Source: Candidatus Levyibacteriota bacterium (GTDB taxonomy: Bacteria; Patescibacteriota; Microgenomatia; Levybacterales; UBA12049). From it: a stretch of 64,000 nucleotides of DNA. Below, one piece after another: positions 4,094-36,382 of this stretch. How positions within the stretch are numbered: the first letter of the stretch is position 1; the number at the start of each line of letters is the position of its first letter. Below the pieces are notes generated by a model. It did no database searches, was not told the DNA's origin, and was given only the letters and a program-made list of their open reading frames with translations. Where the stretch lies: assembly GCA_017991775.1 (NCBI GenBank), contig JAGOPV010000004.1, positions 2,847-66,846 on the forward strand. Reading direction: 5' to 3'. The position numbers and the translations under genes are program-made.

Positions 4094-4179
4094 GGGCGAG
4101 TGGCGGAATGGTATACGCGACAGTCTCAAAAACTGTTAGTTGTAATGACTATAAGGGTTCGAGTCCCTTCTCGCCCACC
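4094..4179 (+). tRNA. tRNA-Leu (anticodon CAA)
   Basis: Cloverleaf by hand: acceptor GGGCGAG/CTCGCCC, 5-bp anticodon stem ACAGT/ACTGT, loop CTCAAAA (U33, CAA, A37), long variable arm, T-arm AAGGG-TTCGAGT-CCCTT, discriminator A, encoded CC. Confidence 0.85.
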
Positions 4180-14785: not shown

Positions 14786-16189
14786 ATGCTTCCCTCTAAA
14801 CTTGCCTTTGTCGATCTTGAGACCACAGGCATGAGGTCTCACTCAGATCGAATCATCGAAATAGGAATCATCCTTGTTGATGACGATAAAGTGAGTTCTA
14901 CCTACTCTTCACTTATTAACCCGGGTGCATATATTCCACCGTCAATTCAAGCGATTACTGGTATCACCCAAAGCGAACTTGAGACTGCTCCTTCTTTTCG
15001 TGAAATTCACGAAATCGTCGAAGAACTCTTAATAGATAGAGTATTTGTTGCACATAATGCACGTTTTGATTACGGATTTTTGAAAAGTGAGTTCAAAAGA
15101 CTCGAGAAGTCATTCTCGCCAAAGCAATTCTGCACAGTCAGATTCTCAAGGACACTCTTCCCGTCTCTCCCAAGACATAACTTAGACACCATCATAAATC
15201 ACTTCGATATTAAGGTTGAAAATAGACATAGAGCCCTTGATGATGCTCAAGCAACCTATGAATTCTTTAAAATTGCAAAAGAAAGAACCGACCCGCAGAT
15301 TTTTAAGACTGCCATCGAGAAAACACTCAAGAAGCCTTATCTTCCTAAGAATCTTGATCCACTCGTACTAGACGCACTTCCCTCGTCTCCTGGCGTCTAT
15401 GTTTTTTATGGAGACGACAACTTTCCCCTCTATATTGGCAAAAGTATCAATTTAAAAGATCGAGTCCTCTCACACTTCTCTGACATCCTCTCGCCTACTG
15501 AAATGAATATTAGTCAACAAATCACACGTATTGAAACGATAAAAACGGCAGGTGAGCTTGGTGCACTTTTTCTTGAATCAAGGATGATCAAAGAGCAACT
15601 TCCTCTCTATAATAAAATGCTTCGTCAAACCCAAGAACTTCTCATTCTCAAAAAGAATATCAATAAAGATGGCTACCTTACGACCTCACTCGAGCAGCTT
15701 CCCAGTACACAACTTCCTGATATGGAGAATAATCTCGGCATATTCCGCACGCGAAAACAGGCAAAAGAATCCCAAAGCGCGCTTTCGCTCAAGTACTCAC
15801 TCTGCGAGAAGCTCCTAGGATTGGAAAAAACAAATGGTGCCTGTTTTGGACATAGATTAGATAGATGCAAAGGGGCATGTATTGGAAAAGAAAATAGTCT
15901 TAGCTATAACATGAGATTCGTCGAGGCATTTAGCACACAACGCATAAAGAACTGGCCATTTGAGGGGAAGATCATAATCACTGAAAAAGATGAGCTTGAG
16001 GGTAAGACTGATTACTTCCTCATCGACAACTGGTGTCTATTGGGAAAGGTCCAGACTGACACAAATGATAGCTTTCTGGAAGATGAATATGACTATTCAT
16101 TTGATCTGGATACCTATAAAATAATCTGTCGATATATTCTTTCGACAAAAAATATTCACAGGATCAAAGCTCTACTCAACGATAACTGA
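14786..16189 (+). CDS. DEDDh 3'-5' exonuclease (DnaQ-like) fused to GIY-YIG nuclease domain (Cho/UvrC-N-like)
   Basis: N-terminal FVDLETTG...HNARFD...HRALDDA exonuclease motifs; GIY-YIG-like VYVFYG...LYIGKS...R in middle. Confidence 0.75.
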   Translation: MLPSKLAFVDLETTGMRSHSDRIIEIGIILVDDDKVSSTYSSLINPGAYIPPSIQAITGITQSELETAPSFREIHEIVEELLIDRVFVAHNARFDYGFLKSEFKRLEKSFSPKQFCTVRFSRTLFPSLPRHNLDTIINHFDIKVENRHRALDDAQATYEFFKIAKERTDPQIFKTAIEKTLKKPYLPKNLDPLVLDALPSSPGVYVFYGDDNFPLYIGKSINLKDRVLSHFSDILSPTEMNISQQITRIETIKTAGELGALFLESRMIKEQLPLYNKMLRQTQELLILKKNINKDGYLTTSLEQLPSTQLPDMENNLGIFRTRKQAKESQSALSLKYSLCEKLLGLEKTNGACFGHRLDRCKGACIGKENSLSYNMRFVEAFSTQRIKNWPFEGKIIITEKDELEGKTDYFLIDNWCLLGKVQTDTNDSFLEDEYDYSFDLDTYKIICRYILSTKNIHRIKALLNDN

Positions 16190-16612
16190 TCCAGTCATCT
16201 CCCCAACGGTATACGTGTACGTTCCTGCTGTTGTGAACATGTACGTCGACTTTTCTCCGTTTTCAAGATTAACGCTATCAAATGTTCCATTGTATGAAGT
16301 GACTTTATGATCAGCGGTACCAGCATTGATCCATGTGACCTGTGTACCAACAGGAACTGTAAGACTATCTGGAGTTACCATATCATCTGATATTGTAACG
16401 GTATTCTCGTCAGCAACTTCCTTGGTCATCGTTGCCGCTTCCTGCTTCATCATTGCGTATCTTCGTGCAACAGATGATCTTCCTAAGATCATAAGGATAA
16501 GAAGGATAACGATAAAACCACCACCAACAATAATCAAAAGTGAGTGCTCACCTGCAAGAGATGAATGTCCTTTAGATGCTGCTACTTTTGTCTTTTTTAC
16601 TTTCTTCGCCAT
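16172..16612 (-). CDS. Membrane-anchored cupredoxin-like domain protein (no Cu ligands evident)
   Basis: TM anchor then beta-rich VPVGTQVTWINAGTADHKV...GTYTYTVG domain; start set at second Met (16612) 9 nt after AGGTGG RBS. Confidence 0.5.
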   Translation of the reverse strand: MAKKVKKTKVAASKGHSSLAGEHSLLIIVGGGFIVILLILMILGRSSVARRYAMMKQEAATMTKEVADENTVTISDDMVTPDSLTVPVGTQVTWINAGTADHKVTSYNGTFDSVNLENGEKSTYMFTTAGTYTYTVGEMTGSVIVE

Positions 16613-16819
16613 AATAATCACCACCTTTAGAAGTTCTTGACGAATGCCTGTAAGGCAGAGTCTCTAGAACTTCTTAACCCCTCGAAGCGAATATTCGACT
16701 GCATGGCTGTAAGCCTTGAGGCGAACATGAGCGAAGTGGGGCTTCACATAATTATCATACATCAGCGGCTGAATAGCTTGTCAATGAGATGATTAGATAG
16801 GAGAGTTAGAAGTGGCGGC

Positions 16820-17665
16820 TTAGGCCTTTGGATACGAGATCTTAGCGTTCTTCTGAAGATTTTGGATAAGAGTCTGTACCTGAGTATTGAATTTTTCTTG
16901 TCTCAAAGCCTCTTTAGCCTGCGCCTTGATATCTGCATCTTTTGTTCCTGCAGGGATAGACTCTTTATTCTTTTCAACATAATCTGTAATTTCCTTGTCG
17001 GACACCTTGATCTCGCCTACGAGCTTCTCCAATAGCTTCTGGAGCTGAATACGTTCCTTATAGTTAGCAAGTGTGTCGCCCTGCATAGCAAGAGCTGACT
17101 CAAGGTTTTGACCCTGACCTTCAAGACTCTTACGTGTCTTTGCAACTTCATCATTAATCTCTTTCTCTGTAACTGAAACATTCTTCTTCTCTGCCTCCTG
17201 ATGTAGGAGAGTCTTTGTTACAAGCTGATTCATTGCTTGCTTTCCAGCAGTTGTTCGAGCTTCTGAAACATAAATCCCCTCAACCTCTTTCATGTAAGTA
17301 AGTCGATCAATTGGTTTGCCATTAACAGTTGCAACTACAAAAAACCCTCTAAAATAAATCAAAAGACCGACGATAAGTAAGACGATAATTGCAAGAATTG
17401 CATGCATCGGACGGATATTTAATCTCTTCATCGTAGCTGTAGCAGATGATCTGTATGATGAGAGCGTACTTTTGGAAGTAGTGGATGATGTCTGAGTTTT
17501 TGCTGGAGACGCTGCTACTTTCGTAGGCGTTGGAGATGATTTAACTGGAGTAGCTTTTGAACTAACTTTTACAACTGATTTGGATGCTTTTTTTGCTGGT
17601 GATGCTTTCAAAGTTGGACTTGTAGTCTTTTTAGCAGTTGATGGTTTAGTTTTTTGTGTCGCCAT
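16820..17665 (-). CDS. Lys/Ala-rich N-terminus, TM anchor, SurA-N/PpiD-like chaperone domain protein
   Basis: Histone-like KKxAK repeats, single TM, helical SurA_N-like domain. Confidence 0.5.
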   Translation of the reverse strand: MATQKTKPSTAKKTTSPTLKASPAKKASKSVVKVSSKATPVKSSPTPTKVAASPAKTQTSSTTSKSTLSSYRSSATATMKRLNIRPMHAILAIIVLLIVGLLIYFRGFFVVATVNGKPIDRLTYMKEVEGIYVSEARTTAGKQAMNQLVTKTLLHQEAEKKNVSVTEKEINDEVAKTRKSLEGQGQNLESALAMQGDTLANYKERIQLQKLLEKLVGEIKVSDKEITDYVEKNKESIPAGTKDADIKAQAKEALRQEKFNTQVQTLIQNLQKNAKISYPKA

Positions 17666-33844: not shown

Positions 33845-34311
33845 GCTTTGGCTTCTGTTTTCACTTTCTCAAGTGCATCCATGAATCCTTTTGGAGTTAG
33901 AGAAGATCCAGCAACCTTGGTCAACTGTACTTCATCAATCTTTTTGCCAACAACCATCGGCTTAAATCCTTCTGCGAACTCCCCCTGGAATCTCTTTGAG
34001 GGTGCATCTGTGGCACTACCTTCAAAAGTTGAGTCAGTAACAACATCTCCTTGCAGCGTCACTGTAATATTTACCTCACGTGGGCCTCCTGGCGAAACGT
34101 AGTTACCAACGACACTATATGTACCATCTTTATAAATACCTGTAGTAGCAGAGTCTTGTGTTGGAGCCGTAGTCACCTGATCTGAAACTGCACCAGATGG
34201 GACAGTTGAAGATTTTTGAGTCGTATAGAAGAAAATCACTGCGACTGCAATGATTGCAACGACGGCAGCGGGAAGTACGAACTTCATCATAGAATTATTT
34301 TGTTCATCCAT
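33841..34311 (-). CDS. Membrane-anchored FMN-binding (FMN_bind) domain protein, probable flavinylation substrate
   Basis: TM anchor, FMN_bind-like domain with candidate flavinylation site KVAGSSLTPKGF. Confidence 0.6.
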   Translation of the reverse strand: MDEQNNSMMKFVLPAAVVAIIAVAVIFFYTTQKSSTVPSGAVSDQVTTAPTQDSATTGIYKDGTYSVVGNYVSPGGPREVNITVTLQGDVVTDSTFEGSATDAPSKRFQGEFAEGFKPMVVGKKIDEVQLTKVAGSSLTPKGFMDALEKVKTEAKA

Positions 34312-34555
34312 ATAAAATCACCCCCGTTAGAAGCTCTTGCTCTTTTTGTAAAGCAAAAAAGCTTAGAGATTCTTACGTCCCTCATAGTGAACTTTCGGCT
34401 GCATGGCTGTAAGCCTTGAGACGAACGTGAACGACGTGGGACCAAGCCTACTTAGAGTAGCGTAGATTCTTAAGATATCCTAAGCACTACTATATGTGAA
34501 GGTAGTATACAAACCATTTCGTCTTCGTGCAACTGAAAAAAACCTATAGGTTTGC

Positions 34556-34620
34556 TATAATCCCCTTGTTCATTGACACGTTAGGATCGAATCAGGCTAA
34601 CGCCTGGAAAGGACAGGACC
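34556..34620 (+). promoter_or_regulatory. Conserved promoter -10 (TATAAT) plus 5' leader, copy A of 3
   Basis: TATAAT 34556-34561 followed by CCCCTTGTTCATTGACACGTTAGGATCGAATCAGGCTAACGCCTGGAA, identical to copy B. Confidence 0.6.
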
Positions 34621-35088
34621 ATGATCTATCCATTGGTCTTAGTAGTCATCTTTGTTCTTGCCTTTGGCAAGCTCTTCAAGCATTCGAGCTTCAAAGATAT
34701 GACTACTCTTGCGAAAAAGATCTGCTCTTACAGCCTGGGAATTGTATTTGGTGGACTCCTAGGAGTCTTCGTTGGACTTCTTTTGGACAACATCTCCCCA
34801 GCAAGTGAGATTCGCAGCGTTCCCTACACACTAGATCAATTCTCCTCGCCTAAAGGAACGCTTGTTTTTGTGGGCGAGGAGTATGTCTGGTATCTGCTCA
34901 ATGGAGAGGAGAAAAAGACACATCTAAGTGCTGTCGAATTCGTTGAGGCCGACTCGGCAACACTTACCGTACAAGGAGAATACTGCATGCGAGACTTTTG
35001 GTCAATCCTGCTGCGAGGATTTTGTTTCGGCAACGAAACATTTGTCTTCGAAGTTCCACCAGAATCCATTCATCAATTCAAAACCTAA
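34621..35088 (+). CDS. Small membrane protein, array paralog 1 (2 TM + about 90-aa beta-rich C-domain)
   Basis: 155 aa; own promoter/leader and terminator; architecture shared with 35245 and 35886 ORFs. Confidence 0.6.
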   Translation: MIYPLVLVVIFVLAFGKLFKHSSFKDMTTLAKKICSYSLGIVFGGLLGVFVGLLLDNISPASEIRSVPYTLDQFSSPKGTLVFVGEEYVWYLLNGEEKKTHLSAVEFVEADSATLTVQGEYCMRDFWSILLRGFCFGNETFVFEVPPESIHQFKT

Positions 35089-35112
35089 CATCAATCAACC
35101 CAATAATCACAC

Positions 35113-35145
35113 CCCGTCCCGCTAAGCGGGACGGGGTTTTTCTTT
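35113..35145 (+). terminator. Rho-independent terminator (conserved module)
   Basis: CCCCGTCCCGCTAAGCGGGACGGGG hairpin then TTTTTCTTT. Confidence 0.8.
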
Positions 35146-35179
35146 ATCTCATCGCTTGTCCTACGCCTTCAGAATATAC

Positions 35180-35244
35180 TATAATCCCCTTGTTCATTGA
35201 CACGTTAGGATCGAATCAGGCTAACGCCTGGAAGGAGTACCAAA
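35180..35244 (+). promoter_or_regulatory. Conserved promoter -10 plus leader, copy B
   Basis: TTGTCC-18-TATAAT then leader identical to copy A over about 50 nt. Confidence 0.6.
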
Positions 35245-35739
35245 ATGATCAATATTCTTTTTGGAGCTAATCTCGGTGTGCTTTTTTGCATTTTCGCTAG
35301 GCTCTTTATCGGGCCTCATCCAGTAGATAATCGCGAGATTAAAGGTTTGGCAGTATTTGGAGCAATCATTGGAACTATTATCACCCTAGTTGCGTCACCA
35401 TGGATTCTGGATAGAGGACCAATGTCCAACGAATCCAAGATCTATCCCATATACCGCCTCCATGACCCCGCCAATGGTCCGTATCTCATCCTTCAACGGG
35501 ATGGCGAATATGTCGCAGACATCGACATAAAGGAAGGGGTCCAACTCGTTCCTATACCTACATTGACGAACTATCATCTCGAAGTGATAATTGCACCACG
35601 TGATGATGCGATCGCAATCGTATCAACAAATAGGTGCATTAACAGAATCACACTCTGGACAATCTGCTGGAGGAGCACCACGGAGGTCACCTATCGAATT
35701 CCGACTGGAACGCAACTTGACCTCCTCTCGTCAACCTAA
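35245..35739 (+). CDS. Small membrane protein, array paralog 2
   Basis: 164 aa; 2 TM + C-terminal domain; flanked by conserved promoter and terminator modules. Confidence 0.6.
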   Translation: MINILFGANLGVLFCIFARLFIGPHPVDNREIKGLAVFGAIIGTIITLVASPWILDRGPMSNESKIYPIYRLHDPANGPYLILQRDGEYVADIDIKEGVQLVPIPTLTNYHLEVIIAPRDDAIAIVSTNRCINRITLWTICWRSTTEVTYRIPTGTQLDLLSST

Positions 35740-35762
35740 CAATCAACATCTTTCATCCATAC

Positions 35763-35797
35763 CCCGTCTCGCATTATGCAGGCGGGGTTTTTCTTTA
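35763..35797 (+). terminator. Rho-independent terminator (diverged copy)
   Basis: CCCCGTCTCGCATTATGCAGGCGGGG hairpin then TTTTTCTTT. Confidence 0.7.
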
Positions 35798-35830
35798 TCT
35801 CATCGCTTGTCCTAAGCCTTCAGATTATTC

Positions 35831-35885
35831 TATAATCCCCTTGTTCATTGACAGATCGTTGCAAGTCACTTGAAGGGAGTAAAAA
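35831..35885 (+). promoter_or_regulatory. Conserved promoter -10 plus leader, copy C (3' half diverged, alternative hairpin CAAG-tca-CTTG)
   Basis: TATAATCCCCTTGTTCATTGACAG shared, then divergent. Confidence 0.5.
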
Positions 35886-36320
35886 ATGCTCTATCCTATC
35901 ATTGGCATAATCATAGGATTAGTCCTAGCATCAATTTCAAGCACACTGAGTGAAATTCTGGGCAAATGGCTAACCGTCCTCCTGTGCGTCGCCTGCACAT
36001 TTATTCTAGGTGCATATATTGGTACATATGCACCACATGATCAACGCAACAATGTATCTTATCTTTCTCCACATCCAATTTCCGAAAATACTCTTATCAT
36101 CTACAATCAGGGTGACGCCTGGTTGTTCATTGATGGAAAGCTTCGGACCATTGGGAGCGAGAAGGTCCATCTCAATCCAAAAACGGAAGGGGTTCTCATT
36201 GAATCCGAAAGAGGCTGCAATAGCAACTTCCTAACACTCTCCATCTGGAGTCTTTGCGACGGAAGTACTGAATTCAAAGTCGAAATTCCAGACGAGTCGG
36301 TGACATATTCACTCGAGTAA
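35886..36320 (+). CDS. Small membrane protein, array paralog 3
   Basis: 144 aa; 2 TM + C-terminal domain. Confidence 0.6.
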   Translation: MLYPIIGIIIGLVLASISSTLSEILGKWLTVLLCVACTFILGAYIGTYAPHDQRNNVSYLSPHPISENTLIIYNQGDAWLFIDGKLRTIGSEKVHLNPKTEGVLIESERGCNSNFLTLSIWSLCDGSTEFKVEIPDESVTYSLE

Positions 36321-36349
36321 TTTCTTTGGATTTCCCGACAACCAGCATC

Positions 36350-36378
36350 CCGTCCCGCTTAGCGGGACGGGGTTTTTC
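36350..36378 (+). terminator. Rho-independent terminator (conserved module)
   Basis: CCCGTCCCGCTTAGCGGGACGGGG + TTTTTCTTT. Confidence 0.8.
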
Positions 36379-36382
36379 TTTA

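Follow-up and report, generated by a model that had tools for sequence, protein, structure and literature searches.

The stretch analyzed here, 64,000 nt of a Candidatus Levyibacteriota genome (GCA_017991775.1, contig JAGOPV010000004.1, positions 2,847 to 66,846; hereafter the window), carries two look-alike intergenic sequences directly upstream of two minus-strand redox genes, which raises the question of what these sequences are, on which strand they are read, and whether the genes beside them matter. An earlier note on the window had described a structured element that was either a riboswitch-like leader of the redox genes or a small RNA. The reading put forward here, as a plausible but tentative one, is that both sequences belong to a family of portable structured spacer modules of the Microgenomates (Levybacteria and Gottesmanbacteria) that is not tied to any gene. 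The window's minus strand is called M and its plus strand P throughout.

The two copies are genuine. The window contains exactly two copies of the 28-nt core CTGCATGGCTGTAAGCCTTGAGRCGAAC (plus strand, 16699-16726 and 34399-34426), with 0 occurrences expected by chance and none found in 100 shuffles of the window. In a pairwise alignment, the similarity of copy 1 and copy 2 begins where the minus-strand genes have their start codon and Shine-Dalgarno site, runs for ~130 nt, and then fades. The element proper occupies 16618-16742 (copy 1) and 34318-34442 (copy 2); what else the intervals first given for it cover is promoter and upstream leader. Both copies do abut the ribosome-binding sites of minus-strand genes, namely a cupredoxin gene and an FMN-binding-protein operon. 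Folding of either strand gave two hairpins, A and B, at both copies, in the minus-strand order hairpin A, variable hairpin B, Shine-Dalgarno site. A covariance model of hairpin A, run with filters off, matched these two copies and no others in the window.

Hairpin A is a 66-nt imperfect hairpin with 21-27 predicted pairs. In copy 1 (16677-16742, minus strand; covariance-model match 16674-16744, 90.2 bits), it consists of a closing stem CCCCAC/GAGGGG, a 2-bp mini-stem, a UUCG/CGAA stem, and the invariant apex CUCAAGGCUUACAGCCAUGCAG, as drawn from folds, covariance model, alignment, and covariation. The 45-nt core that had been taken as a unit of its own is really the apex and one arm of this hairpin, the other arm being CCCCUCGAAGCGAAUAUUCGA (plus strand). 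The hairpin quoted as GGCU-GUAA-AGCC was a mis-transcription of GGCUGUAAGCC, and the GNRA tetraloops fall away with it: GGCUGUAAGCC and GCCUGUAAGGC (copy 1's other hairpin) each have a stem of 4 bp and, on the plus strand, a GUA triloop with U-A as its closing pair (UAC on the minus strand); a GNRA loop with a Watson-Crick closing pair is present in neither. Hairpin B of copy 1 (16629-16674, minus strand) is predicted, from the fold and from comparison with the orthologous loci L002 and L060, as a AGAAGUUCU/AGAACUUCU stem around GCCUUACAGGC, and it has the same CUUACAG loop as hairpin A. It adjoins the Shine-Dalgarno sequence AAAGGUGGUGA (16618-16628) and the ATG (16610-16612) of the minus-strand cupredoxin gene (Cupredoxin_1 in Pfam). 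The Shine-Dalgarno sequence is unpaired in the predicted fold here, as it is in those of L012, L030, and L044, three of the homologous loci described below; most of the folds predicted for the family leave this site free. A probable promoter, recognized by eye, lies at 16754-16784 on the minus strand (TTGACA at 16779-16784, a 19-nt spacer, and TATGAT at 16754-16759); the promoter scan, which permits spacers of 16-18 nt, did not report it.

In copy 2, hairpin A (34377-34442, minus strand, from fold and alignment; covariance-model match 34374-34444, 86.8 bits) has a CGU/ACG mini-stem, a type also found in L012, L027, and L044, and hairpin B (34326-34376, minus strand) folds as an AGAA.CUCU/AGAG.UUCU stem around an A/U-rich hairpin. 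The Shine-Dalgarno sequence AACGGGGGUGA (34318-34328) and the ATG (34309-34311), both on the minus strand, belong to an operon of an FMN-binding protein (named from public sources), ApbE, and an NAD/FAD reductase (Pfam ApbE and NAD_binding_1). Ahead of the module is an upstream leader (34448-34532, minus strand) with a small hairpin CUACUCUAAGUAG at 34448-34460, outside the shared module, and a probable promoter, again by eye, with TTGCAC at 34527-34532, a 17-nt spacer, and TATACT at 34504-34509 on the minus strand. The promoter hexamers of copy 1 are kept in the orthologous loci L002, L004, L005, and L060, and the promoter of copy 2, together with the first ~45 nt of the leader, is kept in L055 and L061, both of which are without hairpin A. 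Because the promoter hexamers of both copies are conserved in orthologues, the strand transcribed in this window is almost certainly the minus strand.

The earlier note had suggested comparing the element with Rfam on both strands and searching relatives with a covariance model. In Rfam 15 at the gathering score, the element had no match in the window or at 10 homologous loci (rRNA and tRNA were the only hits), and at E ≤ 10 both copies, on both strands, gave nothing relevant; the element is thus uncatalogued. A literature search for an equivalent element in Patescibacteria likewise found nothing relevant. Homologues were collected by two pattern scans, the first run on species genomes and the second on metagenomes, which yielded 10 more distinct intact copies, and one with a replaced apex, from Levybacteria, Gottesmanbacteria, and metagenomes: a Gottesmanbacteria metagenome-assembled genome (MAG; L008), a Levybacteria MAG (L012), a relative of the window organism (GCA_964533055.1; L021), and seven further distinct metagenome sequences (L026/L031, L027, L028/L047, L030, L044, L050, and L051). 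All intact homologues score 75-91 bits with the hairpin A model. The second copy in L031 is divergent (39.9 bits), with a plain GC hairpin in place of the apex and the basal loops kept. The strict pattern had a single match in each of three species genomes, and no hairpin A copies were found in 60 kb of related loci, no pattern matches in viral_contigs, and no blastn match among phages and plasmids. The remaining pattern matches in unrelated genomes were set aside as chance matches. One set of these is a near-identical ~170-nt repeat on eight contigs of the Caldarchaeales MAG JAVVGN01 (L007, L009, L011, L013, L017, L019, L022, and L023), several times near the end of the fetched stretch; it fits the pattern by chance and is unrelated to the element.

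Covariation across the family is strong. In the 13-sequence model alignment, 90.1% of cells were paired and 13 of the 24 pairs had changed on both sides; 0 of 500 shuffles scored as high, and sliding the partners lowered pairing to 26-46%. This alignment was fitted to the covariance model, and a MAFFT alignment gives the same compensations, among them a C-G/U-A compensation in the 2-bp mini-stem that splits the sequences 8 to 4. Because compensatory changes appear in both the model and the MAFFT alignments, hairpin A is a selected structure. Its apex CUCAAGGCUUACAGCCAUGCAG (minus strand) and internal loops are invariant while the stems covary. Each intact copy has a hairpin B after A on the same side, and the B sequences are unrelated between copies. 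The claim that differences between the two window copies preserve pairing stood for three pairs of hairpin A (C-G to U-A twice and U-A to C-G once, each changed on both sides) and one pair of hairpin B, and failed for another pair of B, which is broken. The two window copies are of different hairpin A sequence types (CGC/GCG versus CGU/ACG mini-stem) within the same genome, and copy 2 aligns more closely with L012 than with copy 1.

The genomic contexts are heterogeneous, and the module occurs in both orientations. Six copies show, on M, the order A, B, Shine-Dalgarno site, ATG, and the genes that follow are unrelated: the cupredoxin gene and the FMN-binding operon in the window, ybaB in L012 (with the module between dnaX and ybaB), rpsU (S21) in L021, a cupin gene in L030, and an AHSA1/SRPBCC protein gene in L044, where the module comes right after the arsR stop codon. 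In a seventh co-oriented case, copy 1 of L031, the module heads the longer leader of a (double) zinc-ribbon gene. A methyltransferase is also among the downstream features. Against these ~7 copies co-oriented on M with a downstream gene stand ~5-6 loci whose neighbours point the other way. In L051, the element lies 69 nt upstream of the 5' end of a 16S rRNA gene transcribed in the P sense, with a boxA-like sequence UGUUCUUUGACAAUCG between, and in L008 it lies ~260 nt upstream of a 16S rRNA gene, also in the P sense. Copy 2 of L031 sits in a 131-nt spacer between tRNA-Phe and tRNA-His genes, both in the P sense, 14 nt from one of them. In L047 and L050, the module is between two P-oriented protein genes, just after the terminator of the upstream gene, and the module of L027 is flanked by divergent genes. 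In L051 (74-185, +) and L008 (1043-936, -), sigma-70 promoters close to the consensus (11/12 and 10/12) are aimed through the element toward the 16S gene. Separate terminator hairpins after hairpin B were found only in L008, L051, L047, and L050. Because the GC skew of M merely follows the orientation of the flanking genes, the orientation of the element is, by this crude measure, not fixed to replication, and it is not fixed to transcription either; a replication-strand bias was rejected as an account of the element for the same reason.

Two observations were made beside the rRNA-leader copies. In both L051 and L008, a strong terminator-like hairpin with a U run follows the promoter after ~50-70 nt, and only then come the element, the boxA-like sequence, and the 16S rRNA gene; the arrangement would amount either to a terminator within the leader of the rRNA or to a tiny transcript ending shortly before that leader. 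L008 also has an extra GC-rich hairpin between the element and boxA (709-762), whose apex GGCUGUAAGCC runs in the polarity opposite to that of hairpin A (17.5 bits).

Comparison of related loci shows gain, loss, and relocation. L047 and L050 come from related genomes (they share a neighbouring 705-aa gene), and their homology coincides exactly with the module. It begins with the opening base of the closing stem and extends over 133 nt at 97% identity, and the flanks are unrelated on either side. At the cupredoxin locus, hairpin A is intact in the window and in L001, degenerate in L060 (88% protein identity; core mutated and a 20-nt insertion in the apex), truncated with its apex deleted in L002 (85%), and absent from L004 and L005 (63-65%), where the promoter is kept. 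At the FMN-operon locus, L061 (86% identity) and L055 (80%) have a different leader, called X here, in place of A and B, with the promoter kept; because these relatives carry X instead, copy 2 was, on this comparison, gained in the lineage of the window. In the block rpsU-ybeY-dnaX-ybaB, the module stands before rpsU in L021 and between dnaX and ybaB in L012, and rpsU of L012 has a short plain leader without the module. The rRNA-leader copies of L008 and L051 are at an orthologous place, 81% identical, with compensatory changes.

Beyond these observations, we infer transcription in the window, an effect on the RNA, and the way the module spreads. Both window copies, lying between promoter and Shine-Dalgarno site, would be transcribed as 5' leaders of the cupredoxin mRNA and of the FMN-binding/ApbE operon mRNA, and the cupredoxin mRNA would start ~5-7 nt before hairpin A. 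The RNA would form a very stable double hairpin that leaves a long Shine-Dalgarno sequence single-stranded. Its action would be generic, either as a 5'-proximal protective or insulating structure or as a site for double-strand-specific (RNase III-type) processing, so that processing, stability, or insulation of the transcript would be affected, as with co-transcribed enterobacterial repetitive intergenic consensus (ERIC), Correia, and repetitive extragenic palindromic (REP) elements, and no ligand would be sensed. Such a module would work in either orientation because its helices are identical on both strands by Watson-Crick complementarity, and a generic role of this kind would also be compatible with positions in rRNA leaders, tRNA spacers, and intercistronic regions.

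The closest known systems resemble the module in part. ERIC and Correia elements are imperfect palindromes of ~100-150 bp in transcribed intergenic regions, found in either orientation, present or absent between relatives, and with sequences well conserved from taxon to taxon; as part of a transcript, they fold into hairpins that change the stability or processing of the mRNA, and Correia elements are substrates of RNase III. They occur in tens to hundreds of copies per genome and have terminal inverted repeats and a TA target duplication. Like ERIC in Enterobacteria and Correia in Neisseria, the module is intergenic, predicted to be co-transcribed, found in either orientation, and present or absent at orthologous sites; unlike them, it has 1-2 intact copies per genome, includes the non-palindromic hairpin B, and is hosted by Microgenomates. 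Terminal inverted repeats were not found, the unit of A, B, and (where present) terminator not being palindromic as a whole, and no direct repeats flank the L047/L050 unit. RNase III sites (those of the phage T7 R1.1 type and those in rRNA and mRNA leaders) are hairpins of ~25-30 bp that contain internal loops and occur in the leaders of rRNAs, in intercistronic spacers, and in 5' leaders. Hairpin A is like them in size, internal loops, and locations, with processing here a prediction, and unlike them in that the known sites do not form a dispersed family of homologues sharing one invariant 27-nt apex. REPs are 20-40 nt long and marked by a GTAG or CGTC tag (PMC3733652). They are highly repeated and paired with a RAYT gene. 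The module shares with REPs and REPINs a hairpin-forming extragenic palindrome with conserved mismatches in either orientation, and REPs are recognized strand-specifically as single-stranded DNA (ssDNA); it differs from them in being longer and low-copy. No GTAG or CGTC tag is conserved at the module borders in the alignments, and no transposase-like gene is among the called neighbours. With the riboswitches and cis-regulatory leaders of Rfam, the element shares a covarying structure and, in the window, a position between promoter and Shine-Dalgarno site; it differs from them in that it matches no Rfam family, is not consistently associated with any gene, occurs in both orientations, and shows no expression platform.

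Several points weigh against a portable spacer with a generic role. The copy number (two in 64 kb, one strict match per species genome, and none in the 60 kb of related loci) is low, unlike that of REP, ERIC, or miniature inverted-repeat transposable elements, and no target-site duplication or transposase was seen at the copies. The fixed strand identity of the mismatches is unexplained by a generic double-stranded RNA role and points to a sequence- and strand-specific partner, and a generic hairpin would not need a 27-nt apex that is invariant across class-level lineages. The module's transcription, its processing, and any effect on expression are all predictions. An apex without variation and mismatches fixed to one strand require a specific reader, and hence there are two serious rivals, which share the idea that hairpin A is the recognition site of a sequence- and strand-specific Microgenomates factor, as either a new protein-binding RNA (leader and stand-alone small RNA) or a new low-copy ssDNA-hairpin mobile element. 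We consider such a recognition site possible but doubtful. If the factor exists, its signature would be the unchanging apex together with mismatches that keep their strand identity regardless of how the locus is transcribed.

What could choose between the strands is limited to mismatches, bulges, and loops, the Watson-Crick stems reading alike on both. On M, the conserved mismatches are pyrimidine-pyrimidine (UUC/UUC and UC/UC) in both orientation classes; on P, they are tandem G.A in a 5'-YGAR-3' context on both arms, plus GAA/GAA. Sheared G.A pairs prefer the 5'-YGAR-3' context. Purine-purine loops are usual in structured RNA or folded ssDNA and favour P, so the case that the earlier note made for the plus strand, wrong as far as it relied on GNRA loops, can be made separately from these mismatches. 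One stem position that is G.U or A-U on M in 7 of the 13 copies, and the fusion of module and gene through the Shine-Dalgarno site, favour M. The predicted folds are more stable on P by 8.3 (L051), 3.6 (L008), and 12.4 (L027) kcal/mol, and the leader-type copies have 13 G.U pairs on M versus 6 on the other strand; these fold energies and wobble counts are suggestive of a lean to the transcribed strand at each locus, with numbers too small to decide.

The first rival is a functional RNA of the M strand with a dedicated partner such as an RNA-binding protein, serving as a leader in some genomes and as a stand-alone small RNA (A, B, and terminator) in others. Hairpin A would be the recognition site, leader copies would place the downstream gene under the factor's control, and stand-alone copies would merely be antisense to their neighbours. 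A fixed mismatch identity is what a strand-specific RNA predicts, and the excess of G.U pairs on M in the leader-type copies agrees with it. The A-then-B order is the same in every intact copy. In copies that are not followed by a gene, B is succeeded by a GC hairpin ending in a U-rich tail, which travels with the unit (the L047/L050 homology extends into it), and six copies have a Shine-Dalgarno sequence within a few nt of B, with homology continuing through it. Good promoter-like hexamers, judged by eye, precede A in the leader-type copies, and a low copy number with arbitrary neighbours is typical of independent RNA genes. Against this, loci whose neighbours point the opposite way have weak M-strand promoters or none (none is visible in L051), the near-consensus promoters of L051 and L008 cross the element on the other strand, and copy 2 of L031 is only 14 nt from a tRNA gene on the opposite strand. 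The greater stability of the other strand in L051, L008, and L027 also counts against an M-strand RNA, pyrimidine-pyrimidine internal loops are unusual for structured RNA motifs, and close relatives do without the element at the same genes. We regard this rival as rather unlikely.

The second rival, which we hold to be unlikely, takes the module for selfish DNA, a REPIN or an IS200/IS605-derived palindrome, read as an ssDNA hairpin by a strand-specific nuclease or transposase encoded elsewhere. P would be the folded and recognized strand, with tandem sheared G.A pairs and GAA/GAA loops, and any effects on RNA would be by-products. This would account for an orientation independent of transcription, for the sharp borders of the unit between unrelated flanks, for the gain, decay, and relocation among close relatives, and for two sequence types within one genome. 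The conserved mismatches, all purine-purine on one DNA strand regardless of transcription, with tandem GA in 5'-YGAR-3' in both arms, fit as well, as does the rarity of G.U-type pairs on both strands. Opposed to it are the very low copy number, the absence of a transposase or RAYT gene beside any copy among the called neighbours, the absence of a conserved flanking target motif or duplication in the alignments, and the lack of matches in phage, plasmid, and viral collections. Orientation is also independent of local GC skew, though coding-strand bias confounds that measure. The retention of the rRNA-leader copies at an orthologous place with compensatory changes (L008 versus L051) suggests selection at the level of the host.

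A riboswitch-like interpretation has to be set beside leader X, a second uncatalogued structured leader (no Rfam match), which precedes the cupredoxin gene and the FMN-binding/ApbE operon in close relatives. It was located outside the window at L002:2880-3000, L004:890-985, L060:465-576, L055:9895-10000, and L061:405-508, and it stands ahead of both the cupredoxin gene and the FMN operon in GCA_964533055.1 and in L004, L060, and L061. An invariant GCCACUCC in X is predicted to pair with the Shine-Dalgarno sequence GGGUGGUG (five sequences, no covariation yet), and a CCYGCC-GGCRRG pairing is predicted to be mutually exclusive with a GCCUUCG-CGAAGG pairing. The 3' part of X (in L002 and L060) is homologous to hairpin B of copy 1. 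X may therefore, on the predicted pairings, be a regulatory leader (riboswitch- or thermometer-like) of both redox operons, and the idea of a shared regulatory leader may be right for X in the relatives, X having been replaced in the window.

That hairpin A itself is a ligand-sensing, riboswitch-like leader controlling extracytoplasmic redox proteins, as might be supposed from a conserved, covarying structure that precedes the cupredoxin gene and the FMN-binding/ApbE operon at their ribosome-binding sites and from the apparent co-regulation of these two operons, which share X in a related genome, is very unlikely because there is no gene coherence (hairpin A lies ahead of unrelated genes and stable-RNA genes), both orientations occur, the rod-like hairpin has no junction, no expression platform was found, and the element is decayed or absent at orthologous genes, where the shared leader is X, and X, not A, is predicted to pair with the Shine-Dalgarno site. 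As to the platform, no terminator-like site (GC-rich hairpin with a U run) was found at either window copy, and folds and inspection revealed no conserved alternative pairing or Shine-Dalgarno-masking fold. A structured, covarying element in a minus-strand 5' leader position is thus what survives of the proposed regulatory leader, and the riboswitch-like link to redox genes does not.

Other candidate functions were tried and rejected. A small plus-strand open reading frame (ORF), MAVSLE(A/T)N..., has no Shine-Dalgarno sequence, has stops just upstream in copy 2, and has unconserved C-termini of 13-40 aa; on inspection, one reading frame enters the 16S rRNA in L051. A promoter within the element would have to use TTGACG (hairpin B) or TTGAGR (core), neither of which, by eye, is followed by a conserved -10 sequence at a fixed distance. 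Likenesses to signal recognition particle RNA, a hammerhead ribozyme, a K-turn, or a tRNA anticodon-arm mimic were seen by eye only; none of the motifs that define these RNAs is there, and Rfam gives no match. The 5' arm of the closing stem could serve as an anti-Shine-Dalgarno switch through a 6-bp pairing in copy 1, but not in copy 2.

Further features were recorded around the element. The minus-strand cupredoxin gene is convergent with a 467-aa exonuclease/Cho-like gene (plus strand, 14786-16189), with an 18-nt overlap at 16172-16189 that is also found in L001, L002, L004, L005, and L060. Next to copy 2, at 34555-36382 on the plus strand, are three paralogous genes for small membrane proteins (34621, 35245, and 35886), each with a repeated cassette of a terminator (CCCGTCCCGCTAAGCGGGACGGGGTTTTT), a promoter (..CTATAAT), and a 60-nt leader (CCCCTTGTTCATTGACACGTTAGGATCGAATCAGGCTAACGCCTGGAA), the repeats being 88-96% identical; the 60-nt leader is also found divergent from the FMN operon in L055 and L061. 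In L012 (7240-7480, minus strand), the first 14 codons of a ychF-like GTPase gene are duplicated, in diverged form, upstream of the gene itself (MNLSVGIVGLPNVG); the duplicate is followed by a 70-nt GC-rich hairpin (a weak model match, 20.8 bits), a new Shine-Dalgarno sequence, and the start codon GTG. Either an inserted hairpin with rescue of the start or an upstream ORF could account for this. The sole RNA gene that Rfam and ARAGORN found in the window is tRNA-Leu(CAA) at 4094-4179 (plus strand).

To our knowledge, almost no non-coding elements have been described from the bacteria of the candidate phyla radiation, whose genomes are tiny. The element reported here is covarying and deeply conserved, has no catalogued family, and occurs in rRNA leaders, tRNA spacers, and mRNA leaders. 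It also carries a caution, since a shared structured leader before two related operons resembled a riboswitch, and the wider distribution of the family contradicts this; leader X, which the two operons actually share in relatives, may be a better candidate for a regulatory leader. These genomes have modular leaders that are exchanged between genes, and the element is something concrete to mine metatranscriptomes for and to use in searching for its reading factor.

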